From an uncultured Candidatus Saccharibacteria bacterium (GTDB lineage: Bacteria > Patescibacteriota > Minisyncoccia > Phycocordibacterales > Zambryskibacteraceae), in NCBI GenBank assembly GCA_964509605.1, contig CAZDXF010000002.1:89514-153513 (forward strand): a stretch of 64,000 nt of DNA, in the 5' to 3' direction. Below, one piece after another: positions 2,363-17,580 of the stretch. The position numbers were made by a program, and so were the translations under genes. Under the pieces are notes generated by a model, which saw only the letters and a list, made by a program, of their open reading frames with translations, was not told the origin of the DNA and did not search any database. Every line of letters begins with the position of its first letter. Position 1 is the first letter of the stretch.

Positions 2363-2971
2363 ATGGCTTACGTTTTAGGCTTCTTTGTTGCAGATGGAAA
2401 TATGATGGAGACAAATCGTGGAACATATTTTATTTCCTTTTATTCTGCAGATAGAGAGCTTATTCAGACAATCAAGAAGGCAATGGGTTCTGGGCATAAA
2501 ATTTCCGAAAGAAAAAGTGATATTGGTTCTGTATTTCGTATCCAAATAGGCAGTAAGGAAATATTTGAAGATTTTTTAAATTTAGGTCTGTGTCCGAGCA
2601 AGAGCCATCGTATTGAAATACCTAATGTTCCAAGAAAATTTGTGAAAGATTTTATTAGGGGGTATTTTGATGGAGATGGAAATGTTTGGGTTGGATATGT
2701 AAATAAGTATCGTAAAAAACCAACCCTTACAATACAAGTTTCTTTTACAAGTGTATCTTATGATTTCTTGTCTAATTTTCTGGGGCTTTTATGTTGTGGT
2801 GGAGTGAAGGGGGGTTACATTTATAGATCGAAAACAAAAAATTTTAGCAGGATATCTTTGAGTATTTTGGACTCTTTGAAACTTTATGAATTAATGTATA
2901 ATGTGCCTTGCCACTTGTTTTTAAAGAGGAAAAAGGTGGTTTTTGAAAAATTCATAAAAATGCGATCGTAG
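2363..2971 (+). CDS. LAGLIDADG-family homing endonuclease (double-motif)
   Basis: Two LAGLIDADG-type motifs: LGFFVADGN near the N-terminus and IRGYFDGDGNVWV mid-protein. Likely ATG start at 2363 (track start 2309 is an upstream GTG). TAG stop at 2969-2971 lies within positions 8-10 of the downstream tRNA. Confidence 0.8.
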   Translation: MAYVLGFFVADGNMMETNRGTYFISFYSADRELIQTIKKAMGSGHKISERKSDIGSVFRIQIGSKEIFEDFLNLGLCPSKSHRIEIPNVPRKFVKDFIRGYFDGDGNVWVGYVNKYRKKPTLTIQVSFTSVSYDFLSNFLGLLCCGGVKGGYIYRSKTKNFSRISLSILDSLKLYELMYNVPCHLFLKRKKVVFEKFIKMRS

Positions 2972-3243
2972 CTCAACTGGTTAGAGCACCCGCCTGTAGA
3001 TAATTGCAGCTTTTTATCGAAAGATAGATTGAAACTCTCTGGGATAACGGTGAAGGCTAAGTTTACCAATCGGTGAATATGCGAATACCGTGGGAACTCG
3101 TCATTATTAGACGAGAGCGCCGTAGAGACTAGATACCAGAGCGCCTAACAGGAAACTTAAGGTGAAGATATAGTCCACGCCATTATGAAAATAGTGGATC
3201 ACGTGCACGCGGGAGGTTGCCGGTTCAAGTCCGGTCGGTCGCG
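2962..3243 (+). tRNA. tRNA-Asp (anticodon GUC) interrupted by a 208-nt group I intron in the anticodon loop
   Basis: 5' exon GCGATCG-TA-GCTC-AACTGGTTA-GAGC-A-CCCGC-CTGT (2962-2997). 3' exon CAC-GCGGG-AGGTT-GCCGG-TTCAAGT-CCGGT-CGGTCGC-G (3206-3243). Spliced loop CTGTCAC gives anticodon GTC; G73 and G10 fit Asp identity; the G3:C70 pair argues against Ala. Confidence 0.8.
2998..3205 (+). ncRNA. Group I self-splicing intron (compact, tRNA-type; no internal ORF)
   Basis: 5' exon ends in U pairing with an IGS GCAG (P1); intron ends in G. R-like GAGACTAGA and exact S-element consensus AAGATATAGTCC form P7 (GACTA/TAGTC). A GAAA-tetraloop hairpin TATCGAAAGATA is present. Confidence 0.8.
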
Positions 3244-4845
3244 CATCAAGGGACGGAGTGAGGCGAAAGCTTCACTCTGTCTTTGTTTATCAAGGGTTTT
3301 TTCCAGTTCTAACCGTTTATATTCTTTTTCTATCGCTGGATAGTGATTTTGAATTGGAATAAACCATTCGTTAGGCAAAATAACGAGATTTCCGTCTTTT
3401 AGCGTGTAGTTCTGACCGAGTGCAGACAGTATCTCTCTTTTGGTCTCAAGACCGCCTTTACGGAACTCATTGAGAGCGTGGCAGGCAAAGATAAAGGTTT
3501 TCTCTGTGAGCTCAATCCAGTTCTCGGCTCTTTTCTCTGTGTCTCTCATTCTCTGGGATATTTCAGCCATCTGGCTTTGTAGTATTTTTCTTTCCTTCAA
3601 GAACTCCTCATCACTTATAAGCTCTCGGTATCTCATCTTGGTGAGGGTATCAAGCTGTTTTTGAGTATCAGCCAGTGTTTTGTGTTGGGTTTCGTATATA
3701 CGGGTCCTTTCCTCTATTTCCTTATCATTGTTTTTATTGAGTATCTCCAGAGCCCAGTCCTTGAATTGAGGAAGTATGGTTATTTTGGCAATCTCTTTTT
3801 CAATCTCTTCCTCAACTTTGCCTACAGGGACATATTTCTTCTGGGTGCATACGCAACCTTTCTTCCTTCTTGTGCAGTAGTAATACACGAAGGTTTTTAC
3901 TTCTCCTGTTTTCTTTATGATTTTTGTTTTCTCAATGGCTGTAATTGCACTCCCGCACTCGCCACACCTTATAATCCCAGTAAAAGGAAACTCGTGGGTC
4001 TTTGGTCTCGGCTTACCATCTCTACCAAGAAGCATTTGAACTCTGTCATACTCCTCAAGAGTAATCATTGGTTTGTGTTTACCTTGATATGTCCGTCCTC
4101 TGTATTGGAACAAGCCCGCATAGAATGGGTCTGTGAAGATGCGGTAAATAGTGCTTCTTGAAAGAGGTTTGCCACCCCTTCTTTTCATTTTCCTTGTTTG
4201 AAGACCCCACTCGTTAGTTGCGATTTCAAGTATTTTTGGAGGTGTATAGTTTCCAGTAAGCATAAGGTCCCACATCTTTCTGATGAGAGAAAATCTCTCT
4301 GGGTCATCTGTGATGTAGTTTTCTCCTCGGGCTTCTATTTTGGTATTCAAATATCCCAAAGGAGCTAAAATGGGAGCTTGTCCTTTCTCAAGCTTGCTAT
4401 CAATACCTCTTCGCACACCTTTCTTTAGGTCCAAGATAAACTGATTAGCAGAACCGCTCTCTACACTCAAAAGGAGAGCGTTGTCATCTGGTTTATATTC
4501 ACGATTGATTGTTCGGATAGATTTGATGATGCTTTGTTGTAGGAGCCATTGGATTTTTCCGCTATCAACTGGATTTCTGGATAAGCGGTTAATCTCCCAG
4601 CACAGGATGCCGTTCGCTTCTCCCGTCTCAATCCTCCTCAACATTTCATCAAAGATGGGTCGGTTATTTGGTTGCTTTGCAGATTTTGCCTCCGAAAGTA
4701 TTTCAACAATTTCCAGTCCAGCATCTTTGGCTAGTTTTGAAATATGATTTGTCTGGTCTCCTATGGATTGGACCTGTCTATCTTCGCTCTCTGATGATTT
4801 ACGAGCGTAGAGAAAGTATTTTATTGTTTCAGTGTCATTTTTCAT
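3199..4845 (-). CDS. Large serine recombinase (phage-type serine integrase)
   Basis: N-terminal resolvase catalytic domain (YARKSSESEDRQVQSIGDQ with catalytic Ser); recombinase domain; zinc ribbon CGECGS...C..C; C-terminal coiled coil. The last ~15 codons are antisense to the tRNA 3' exon. Confidence 0.85.
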   Translation of the reverse strand: MKNDTETIKYFLYARKSSESEDRQVQSIGDQTNHISKLAKDAGLEIVEILSEAKSAKQPNNRPIFDEMLRRIETGEANGILCWEINRLSRNPVDSGKIQWLLQQSIIKSIRTINREYKPDDNALLLSVESGSANQFILDLKKGVRRGIDSKLEKGQAPILAPLGYLNTKIEARGENYITDDPERFSLIRKMWDLMLTGNYTPPKILEIATNEWGLQTRKMKRRGGKPLSRSTIYRIFTDPFYAGLFQYRGRTYQGKHKPMITLEEYDRVQMLLGRDGKPRPKTHEFPFTGIIRCGECGSAITAIEKTKIIKKTGEVKTFVYYYCTRRKKGCVCTQKKYVPVGKVEEEIEKEIAKITILPQFKDWALEILNKNNDKEIEERTRIYETQHKTLADTQKQLDTLTKMRYRELISDEEFLKERKILQSQMAEISQRMRDTEKRAENWIELTEKTFIFACHALNEFRKGGLETKREILSALGQNYTLKDGNLVILPNEWFIPIQNHYPAIEKEYKRLELEKTLDKQRQSEAFASLRPLMRDRPDLNRQPPACT

Positions 4846-17053: not shown

Positions 17054-17091
17054 AAAATCCGAGTATCGTGTGATACTCGGATTTTTGTTTT
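17054..17091 (+). terminator. Rho-independent terminator
   Basis: AATCCGAGTATC-GTGT-GATACTCGGATT followed by TTTGTTTT. Confidence 0.7.
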
Positions 17092-17142
17092 GCAAAAAGG
17101 CTCAATATTCTATAATATTTAAGCCGTTCTTTTGAATTATGT

Positions 17143-17218
17143 GCCAATGTAGCTCCCCGAAGGAGTCGCTATGCGCGACTCTACGGGGCAGGCAGTAGAC
17201 TTTTTAGTACACTGCCTG
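17143..17218. repeat. Orphan 13-nt copy of the tRNA-Thr 5' end followed by two perfect hairpins
   Basis: gccaatgtagctc (17143-17155) equals the first 13 nt of the tRNA at 17240. Followed by CCCCG-aag-GAGTCGC-tat-GCGACTC-ta-CGGGG (17155-17188) and CAGGCAGT...ACTGCCTG (17189-17218). Confidence 0.6.
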
Positions 17219-17239
17219 AATCTGAATTTGTCAGATTAA

Positions 17240-17495
17240 GCCAATGTAGCTCAGTTGGTAGAGCACCCCCATGGTGGATCGTATGATTCTGCCCAGCCAA
17301 GAGGCAACTTTTGGATGAATCCCGAATAACGGTTAAAGTCCTATTAAGATGGATCAGACCGTGGCGCCAAGGCGCCCGAACGACTGACAAGGGTTCGCCC
17401 AGCGCGAAAAGATACAGTCTAGTCTTCTCATATAAAGAAAAGAGAAGTGTAAACGAAGGGGGAGGTCATCGGTTCAATCCCGATCATTGGCTCCA
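17240..17495 (+). tRNA. tRNA-Thr (anticodon GGU) interrupted by a 180-nt group I intron; CCA encoded
   Basis: 5' exon GCCAATG-TA-GCTC-AGTTGGTA-GAGC-A-CCCCC-ATGGT. 3' exon AA-GGGGG-AGGTC-ATCGG-TTCAATC-CCGAT-CATTGGC-T-CCA. Spliced anticodon loop ATGGTAA. Confidence 0.75.
17276..17455 (+). ncRNA. Group I intron (very compact, 180 nt), homologous to the intron at 2998..3205
   Basis: Exon-terminal U pairs with an IGS GCCA. P7 pairing GACTG/CAGTC within R-like cgACTGAcaa and S-like AAGATACAGTCT. Shares the ATAACGGT.AA motif with the first intron. GGCGCC-AA-GGCGCC hairpin. Ends in G. Confidence 0.65.
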
Positions 17496-17505
17496 AGATT
17501 ATTCT

Positions 17506-17580
17506 GGCCACCTTAGCTCAGTTGGTAGAGCGACGGTATCGTAAACCGTAGGTCCGCAGTTCGATCCTGCGAGGTGGCTC
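17506..17580 (+). tRNA. tRNA-Thr (anticodon CGU)
   Basis: GGCCACC acceptor paired with GGTGGCT; anticodon arm ACGGT-ATCGTAA-ACCGT; T-arm CGCAG-TTCGATC-CTGCG. Confidence 0.85.

Follow-up and report, generated by a model that had tools for sequence, protein, structure and literature searches.

The split tRNA-Thr(GGU) gene and its syntenic loci

On the plus strand of the window (the whole 64-kb stretch of DNA analysed here), positions 17240-17495 hold a tRNA-Thr(GGU) gene that is interrupted in its anticodon loop after U36 (36/37). The parts of this gene, the tRNA gene that follows it and the split tRNA-Asp gene that served as a comparator are given below.

17240..17275, plus strand: exon 1 of tRNA-Thr(GGU), positions 1-36, ending in ...CAUGGU with the anticodon GGU (ARAGORN, intron mode)
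17276..17455, plus strand: very probably a group I intron, 180 nt, of the Thr(GGU) 36/37 'divergent' family (R1 190.7 bits, covariation, RNAalifold, MFE)
17455, plus strand: terminal G (omega G) of the Thr intron, read from the sequence, the boundary being set by the intronless orthologue L124
17456..17495, plus strand: exon 2 of tRNA-Thr(GGU), AAGGGGG..., from A37 to the discriminator U, with encoded CCA at 17493-17495
17507..17580, plus strand: tRNA-Thr(CGU), uninterrupted, 11 nt after the encoded CCA of tRNA-Thr(GGU)
2962..3244, plus strand: tRNA-Asp(GUC), comparator, split at 35/36 by a canonical 208-nt group I intron, 2998-3205 (ARAGORN)

When run in its intron mode, ARAGORN reported tRNA-Thr(ggt) interrupted by an intron of 180 nt, and the exons, once joined, made a perfect 76-nt cloverleaf; exon 1 belongs to a block that is 85% identical with the syntenic locus L001. 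Default ARAGORN and Rfam gave no report of this gene in the window, and default ARAGORN found no second tRNA-Thr(GGU) gene in the 64 kb. The anticodon loop of an intronless syntenic tRNA-Thr(GGU) (L124) is CAUGGUAAGG, exactly the junction expected when the exons of the window gene are joined, so that the splice sites are fixed at 36/37. Thus ARAGORN and the L124 junction both bear out the original prediction that this tRNA is split by 180 nt at 36/37, and the U at the end of the upstream exon (U17275) and the G at the end of the intron (G17455), which it also named, are seen in the sequence. The normal tRNA-Thr(CGU) gene, expected 10 nt downstream, is present as well, its distance being 11 nt. 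It probably shares one transcript with tRNA-Thr(GGU), upstream of which there is a promoter-like site (17089-17116), and the tandem order of the two genes recurs in L001, L003, L123, and L124.

Just downstream, positions 17581-18255 encode a VTT-domain protein, whose named homologues belong almost all to Patescibacteria, Parcubacteria or Paceibacterota; a look-up of the exact protein found no record. The syntenic loci, with the identity of their VTT proteins to that of the window, are as follows.

L001 (VTT 79%): tRNA-Thr(GGU) with a homologous 178-nt intron; tRNA-Asp intronless, no island
L003 (VTT 77%): tRNA-Thr(GGU) with a 187-nt intron
L123 (VTT 62%): tRNA-Thr(GGU) with a 209-nt intron
L124 (VTT 55%): tRNA-Thr(GGU) intronless, in the same syntenic place

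The order in L001 is amidase, a 215-aa gene, two tRNA-Met genes, tRNA-Asp, tRNA-Thr(GGU), tRNA-Thr(CGU), and VTT. This comparison of orthologous tRNA-Thr and tRNA-Asp genes, which had been proposed as a check, finds the Thr intron in the close relatives and its absence from the more distant syntenic locus, that is, a gain or a loss at a fixed locus.

A family of introns in tRNA-Thr(GGU)

The covariance-model search, another of the checks proposed, had a divided outcome. Rfam RF00028 gave no match to the Thr intron, neither at the gathering threshold over the whole window nor at E <= 10 on stretches of 521 nt and 195 nt around it, while a family model, R1, built from a 26-sequence alignment of Thr-type introns only (A2), scored the window intron at 190.7 bits, the second best value among all members. 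More than 120 tRNA-Thr(GGU) introns, including those of complete Patescibacteria genomes, e.g., CP011209.1, reach 123-199 bits with R1.

Homologues were collected from one genome per species with the pattern GACTGACAAGG-N(8-38)-AAGATACAGTC (P7, J7/3, and P3' to J8/7 and P7'), which at least 119 stretches match. Among the matches listed, nearly all are labelled Patescibacteria (Paceibacteria-type candidate phyla, Saccharibacteria, Peregrinibacteria, and others), the few other labels being a Niastella populi isolate, Pedobacter and Limimorpha MAGs, and some Gammaproteobacteria bins. ARAGORN assigned the listed homologues to Thr(GGU), Arg(GCG), His, Pro, Leu, and other tRNAs, with a miscall as Arg(GCG) 34/35 in 32 cases. 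Since every listed homologue keeps ...[A/U]UGGU before the intron and a G followed by AA after it, we rejected the calls of Arg(GCG), His, Pro, Leu, and other tRNAs as boundary shifts and consider all the listed homologues to be tRNA-Thr(GGU) introns at 36/37. Among the matches listed, the Thr-type intron is therefore seen only in tRNA-Thr(GGU), in at least 119 genomes.

With the boundaries corrected, the introns among the matches listed are 158-366 nt long, with a median of 192 (115 introns, 114 of them distinct), and 19 of the 115 have 180 nt or less. The claim that the window intron is among the smallest natural group I introns is thus true when set against the classical literature, but within its own family 180 nt is an ordinary length. 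The shortest member (L035, 5925-6082; 158 nt) ends in ...CAGUCUAGCCAAAAGCG, has no P9 hairpin and sits in an intact tRNA-Thr(GGU), with an R1 score of 139 bits. As to the genomes labelled Bacteroidota, a Thr-type intron of 181 nt (181.5 bits) is found in the cultured isolate Niastella populi CCTCC AB 208238 (L050, 5230-5420), and others in L010 (Pedobacter MAG) and L056 (Limimorpha MAG), which points to a wider distribution or to transfer. The Niastella populi isolate offers a culturable system for splicing work.

Secondary structure of the intron

The elements of the structure are given below; the invariance of P7 and of the 3' strand of P3 noted there is partly forced by the search pattern with which the homologues were collected.

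17273..17293, plus strand: P1, GGU (G34 G35 U36) and intron GGA (17273-17278) with UCU GCC (17288-17293)
17294..17317, plus strand: P2, 10 pairs, one G-A mismatch in the window; GNRA tetraloop GCAA at 17304-17307
17321..17323, plus strand: P3, 5' strand CCC, pairing with GGG 17391-17393 in a pseudoknot with P7
17324-17329, plus strand: J3/4, GAAUAA (alignment)
17330-17333, plus strand: P4, CGGU, with ACCG 17358-17361; invariant
17338-17341, plus strand: P5, GUCC, with GGAU 17351-17354; covaries
17363..17376, plus strand: P6, GGCGC, loop CAAG, GCGCC; 96.7% paired, both-side changes in 4 of 5 pairs
17377-17381, plus strand: J6/7, CGAAC; invariant in the family
17382-17386, plus strand: P7, 5' strand GACUG; invariant in the family, helix 100% paired
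17387-17390, plus strand: J7/3, ACAA; invariant in the family
17391-17393, plus strand: P3, 3' strand GGG; invariant in the family
17394..17408, plus strand: P8, UUCGC, loop CCAGC, GCGAA; both-side changes in 5 of 5 pairs
17409-17414, plus strand: J8/7, AAGAUA (alignment)
17415-17419, plus strand: P7, 3' strand CAGUC; together with J8/7 it matches the RF00028 consensus AAGAUAUAGUC apart from U to C
17424..17447, plus strand: P9, CUUCUC 17424-17429 with GAGAAG 17442-17447, 12-nt loop; both-side changes in 6 of 6 pairs

In P1, U36 (17275) makes a wobble pair with G17291 of the guide sequence GCC (17291-17293); this splice-site pair is U-G in 98 of 101 family sequences, and the two pairs above it covary between G-C and A-U. 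The guide originally proposed was GCCA. That sequence (17296-17299) lies in the 5' strand of P2, which covaries in every homologue, while the upstream GCC(C) is invariant and pairs with GGU; GCCA was therefore rejected as the guide. P2 itself shows both-side changes in 10 of its 10 pairs, the G and A of its tetraloop being invariant in A2. P3 is paired in 99.3% of cases, with changes of C-G to U-A, and, as it lies outside the covariance model, this value is unfitted. A longer P3 (GAAUCCC with GGGUUC) was also considered and discarded, because UUCGC and GCGAA make up P8, which covaries strongly, and L001 does not keep the extension.

The P7 strands proposed originally, GACTG (17382-17386) and CAGTC (17415-17419), are both in place and pair. 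By analogy, the guanosine-binding pair would be G17382-C17419. The last pair of P7 is G-C in the window and A-U in three introns of the canonical type included in the alignment. The flank of P7 suggests a pair A17380-U17420 with a bulged C17381, where the canonical arrangement is a G-C pair with a bulged A. The elements AAGAUACAGUC and GACUG (J8/7-P7 and J6/7-P7) are present and invariant, the nucleotides beside P7 being off the usual consensus. P10 has one or two pairs at best, L9 is not GNRA, and the intron contains no reading frame. The presence of P7.1/P7.2 is a mark of subgroup IA; neither the alignment nor the fitted model contains a helix between P3' and P8 in the Thr intron.

A group I core, the failure of which had been named as grounds for dismissing the intron, was recovered in three ways. 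RNAalifold, run on a plain MAFFT alignment of 110 members with no prior structure model, predicted P1, P2, P4, P5, P6, P7, P8, and P9. The MFE fold of the window intron alone has P1, P2, and P4-P9 (-54.2 kcal/mol, z = -2.15). In A2, the stretches GCCC, CCCGAAU.ACGGU, AGACCGU, CGAACGACUGACAAGGG, and AAGAUACAGUCUA are invariant, and the P1 extension, P2, P5, P6, P8, and P9 covary. As for the covariation test, it used a 102-row alignment (101 distinct sequences) fitted to R1, with P3 added by hand as a pseudoknot. In the P1-P9 model, 94.2% of the cells for the 101 distinct sequences are standard pairs, as against 75.9% after shuffling, to be read with the reservation that this alignment, P3 excepted, was fitted to the very model under test. 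With the partners slid by 1-3 columns, 32-47% are paired (46.5% at most), and none of the 500 shuffles reached any of the five pairing measures. Compensatory (both-side) changes occur in 37 of the 48 pairs, whereas P4 and all but one of the five P7 pairs are constant and hence are uninformative on pairing, either way.

The tRNA-Asp intron and the island

The intron of the tRNA-Asp gene is of the canonical type and reaches 47.2 bits with RF00028 (E 4e-11), a little short of the gathering score of 50. When the intronless tRNA-Asp of L001 is aligned with the two exons of the window gene, the break falls exactly at 2997/3206. The intronless orthologues and ARAGORN thus confirm that the Thr intron is inserted one position later (36/37 versus 35/36). 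It had been noticed from the start that the two introns share a block, and they do have ATAACGGTnAA in common (17326-17336 in the Thr intron, 3044-3054 in the Asp intron). Of the relationship drawn from it, a distant one is retained: in the 64-kb window, the only other match of R1 is the Asp intron, with 18.1 bits (E ~2e-4, a rough value), and it runs end to end with both splice sites in register, so the Thr and Asp introns are related, distantly. As distant relatives, they make up two separate families, each with its own host genes. A pairwise MAFFT alignment of the two introns was set aside as not structurally meaningful.

Weak matches of R1 (24-35 bits) in the collected loci also adjoin tRNA-Thr genes. 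Introns of the canonical type often stand next to an intron-bearing tRNA-Thr(GGU) (L070, 7205-7413; L030, 4708-4942; L018, 7671-7865; L116, 7040-7261). Three of these weak-match introns (L070, L030, and L018) interrupt tRNA-like genes after ...CUGU and have cores nearly identical to that of the Asp intron; ARAGORN calls tRNA-Tyr(GUA) at 35/36 in L070 and L018 and makes no call in L030.

Between the two split tRNA genes, some 14 kb (from 3199 to about 17050 of the window) are absent from the syntenic L001. This island encodes a large serine recombinase, a Toprim/primase-like protein, a DNA methylase, a ResIII helicase, an S49 peptidase, and an RNase H. The recombinase frame (3199-4845, minus strand) crosses exon 2 of tRNA-Asp; no direct repeat of the tRNA-Asp 3' end was found at the far side of the island. 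On the other side, a free-standing LAGLIDADG frame (2309-2971; Pfam LAGLIDADG_3, E 2e-13) ends 10 nt inside the 5' end of the tRNA-Asp gene. L001 has neither this frame nor the Asp intron, which suggests that the endonuclease gene and the Asp intron were gained or lost together. The Thr intron, having no reading frame, is presumably immobile and inherited vertically in this lineage.

Other structured elements beside the tRNA genes

Directly upstream of tRNA-Thr(GGU) and downstream of the promoter-like site lies a 97-nt element (17143-17239), which opens with 13 nt that repeat the 5' end of the tRNA itself (GCCAATGTAGCTC) and continues with three tight hairpins (MFE -45.1 kcal/mol, z = -7.2). 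It has no match in Rfam, and outside the window it was seen only in the two closest relatives (L001, 1393-1490 and 1563-1660; L003, 1547-1642). In L001, the two copies are tandem, and after the first comes a degenerate exon 1 whose end coincides exactly with the 5' splice site. The element may serve as a structured leader or be what remains of a duplication.

A second element, of 80-165 nt, recurs after tRNA genes (13 of 212 tRNAs in the fetched Patescibacteria DNA), for example at 2098-2246 of the window, after tRNA-Met (2001-2074), and at 1124-1306 of L001; further copies are found in L024, L036, L054, L055, L104, L105, L109, L117, and L022. It begins with a terminator-like hairpin and the reverse complement of the 3' strand of the tRNA T-loop and T-stem (sometimes also of the acceptor), continues with a structured core in which a hairpin bears a conserved loop of 11-12 nt (GAGCGACGGCGA or GAGCGAAGCGA), and ends in a second, direct copy of the tRNA 3' end. 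The inverted and direct copies can pair and so close the element (z = -3.9). It likewise matches nothing in Rfam; it may be what small integrative elements have left behind, or an RNA whose base resembles a tRNA minihelix.

In L001 (1982-2464) and L003 (1986-2438), a frame of 150-160 aa with a weak HNH_3 match (E 1.7e-4, below the Pfam cut-off) stands between the intron-bearing tRNA-Thr(GGU) and tRNA-Thr(CGU); in the window and L123, the gap between these genes is 11-16 nt.

Discussion

Our analysis revealed a split tRNA-Thr(GGU) gene with an exact junction, a family of homologous inserts in the same gene, and a secondary structure supported by covariation. We are quite confident that the insert is a group I intron of the compact 'divergent' family found at 36/37 of tRNA-Thr(GGU), here in a Patescibacteria genome of the Parcubacteria type. 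By analogy, the intron is most likely removed by standard group I splicing, which might proceed as follows. The gene would be transcribed from the promoter-like site, probably together with the downstream tRNA-Thr(CGU). The anticodon nucleotides G34-G35-U36 and the internal guide GCC would form P1, with the U36-G wobble at the splice site, and the core would take up its fold, P2 through P9 and the P3/P7 pseudoknot included. The pair G17382-C17419 of P7 would bind a free guanosine, which would then attack after U36; subsequently G17455 would occupy the same pocket, and ligation of the exons would yield the loop AU-GGU-AA. The binding of guanosine, the catalysis, and the independence of proteins supposed here are all expected by analogy with other group I introns.

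The two halves could in principle be decayed pseudogene fragments parted by unrelated DNA, from which no functional tRNA is made, as the original prediction had itself allowed. The failure of both the standard annotation and RF00028 at this locus is all that speaks for such an explanation, and we find it hardly credible: the exons fold into a perfect cloverleaf, at least 119 genomes conserve the insert and show compensatory changes in it, the junction is the same as in the intronless orthologue, and the window holds this one tRNA-Thr(GGU) gene only. A more serious alternative is that the insert is derived from group I introns but has lost self-splicing, its reduced core needing a protein cofactor or chaperone in the cell. 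This could account for the absent RF00028 match, the minimal P3 (3 pairs) and P10, and the altered flank of P7, and the published splicing assays, with in vitro self-splicing of the Asn and Asp introns at 35/36, cover these two types only (PMC13011429). Nevertheless, we regard it as rather unlikely, since every helix and junction of the core is either conserved or covarying in over 100 genomes, L2 has a conserved GNRA tetraloop of the kind typical for introns that fold by themselves, the phylum's related introns at 35/36 do self-splice in vitro (PMC13011429), and the proteomes of Patescibacteria are very reduced.

As to the origin of the intron, the presence of related introns in both island-flanking tRNA genes had been taken to suggest spread between tRNA genes, and the Thr intron might accordingly be recent, having arisen by transfer from the tRNA-Asp intron (or the reverse) in connection with the island. 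In favour of this are the position of both tRNA genes at the island, the sequences AUAACGGUnAA and ACCGUGG common to both introns, and the weak match of the Thr-type model to the Asp intron. The distribution of the introns runs counter to it, however: L001 has the Thr intron together with an intronless tRNA-Asp and no island, and L003 and L123 carry the Thr intron too. Moreover, the Thr type is a deep and distinct family confined to tRNA-Thr(GGU) in at least 119 genomes, RF00028 gives 47 bits on the Asp intron and nothing on the Thr intron, and the core of the Asp intron is nearly identical to those of tRNA-Tyr 35/36 introns of other genomes. The pattern in L001 and the separateness of the families argue against recent spread between the flanking genes, and we consider such a transfer very improbable; vertical inheritance of the Thr intron in this lineage is the reading we prefer.

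The family to which this genuine intron belongs has already been described, in the same gene and at the same site, across the phylum. 'Divergent group I introns' at 36/37 were reported in tRNA-Thr(GGU) genes of Patescibacteria (Nakagawa et al. 2026, mSystems, PMC13011429), where the term is credited to Castelle et al. (2018, Nat Rev Microbiol). According to the same work, RF00028 fails on these introns and ARAGORN miscalls them as Arg(GCG) 34/35, the published tree places them on long branches together with the phylum's Asn and Asp introns, and the tRNA introns of Patescibacteria are assigned to subgroup IA, not IC3; the 333 tRNA introns of complete genomes are 184-894 nt long (PMC13011429). 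The introns of tRNA-Thr(GGU) can also be found by tFind with gpI_bact_tRNA.cm (Williams 2020, bioRxiv 10.1101/2020.01.27.920355; PMC13011429). The window intron agrees with this published family in host gene, anticodon, site, phylum, and invisibility to RF00028, and shows no essential difference from it, its 180 nt being slightly below the published range. Since the family was described in 2018-2026, the current understanding is unchanged. What is added here is a family far larger than the three cases from complete genomes, a secondary structure tested by covariation, sizes down to 158 nt, and a syntenic locus at which some genomes have the intron and another lacks it. For annotation, it matters that the only tRNA-Thr(GGU) gene of the window is missed by default ARAGORN and Rfam, and that in many relatives ARAGORN misplaces the boundary and yields Arg, His or Pro, which distorts the tRNA complements and the completeness estimates of Patescibacteria.

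The introns at 35/36 of Patescibacteria tRNAs (Asn, Asp, and Tyr; PMC13011429) have the same group I fold as the Thr type, are short, lack a reading frame and occur in the same phylum. Both kinds share J3/4-P4 (AUAACGGU), P4' (ACCGUGG), and AAGAUAnAGUC at J8/7-P7. Of the 35/36 introns, those of Asn and Asp self-splice in vitro (PMC13011429), and splicing of the Thr type would be expected by analogy. The 35/36 introns differ from the Thr type in being inserted one position earlier, in having a canonical P7 (GACUA/UAGUC) and a P3 of 6 pairs, and in being detected by RF00028 (47.2 bits), with 18-35 bits on the Thr-type model.

Another known system for comparison is the intron of the Azoarcus sp. 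BH72 pre-tRNA-Ile(CAU), which reportedly has 205 nt and belongs to subgroup IC3. It and the window intron are both very small bacterial tRNA introns that have no peripheral domains, carry a GNRA tetraloop on P2 and form P1 with three exon nucleotides only, paired with the guide. The Azoarcus intron differs in its host tRNA and sequence family, and the window intron is 25 nt shorter, with a 3-pair P3 and an L9 that is not GNRA. Most members of the Thr(GGU) family have 158-200 nt. With three pairs in P3, three exon nucleotides contacted in P1, and peripheral domains lacking, the family represents naturally minimised group I cores for biochemistry. Its members might be the smallest natural group I ribozymes that self-splice without protein, a proposal to which we would give a little under an even chance. 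If it is true, the family would replace the 205-nt Azoarcus intron as the minimal natural scaffold, and its 158-nt member from L035, which does without P9, would set a new lower size limit.
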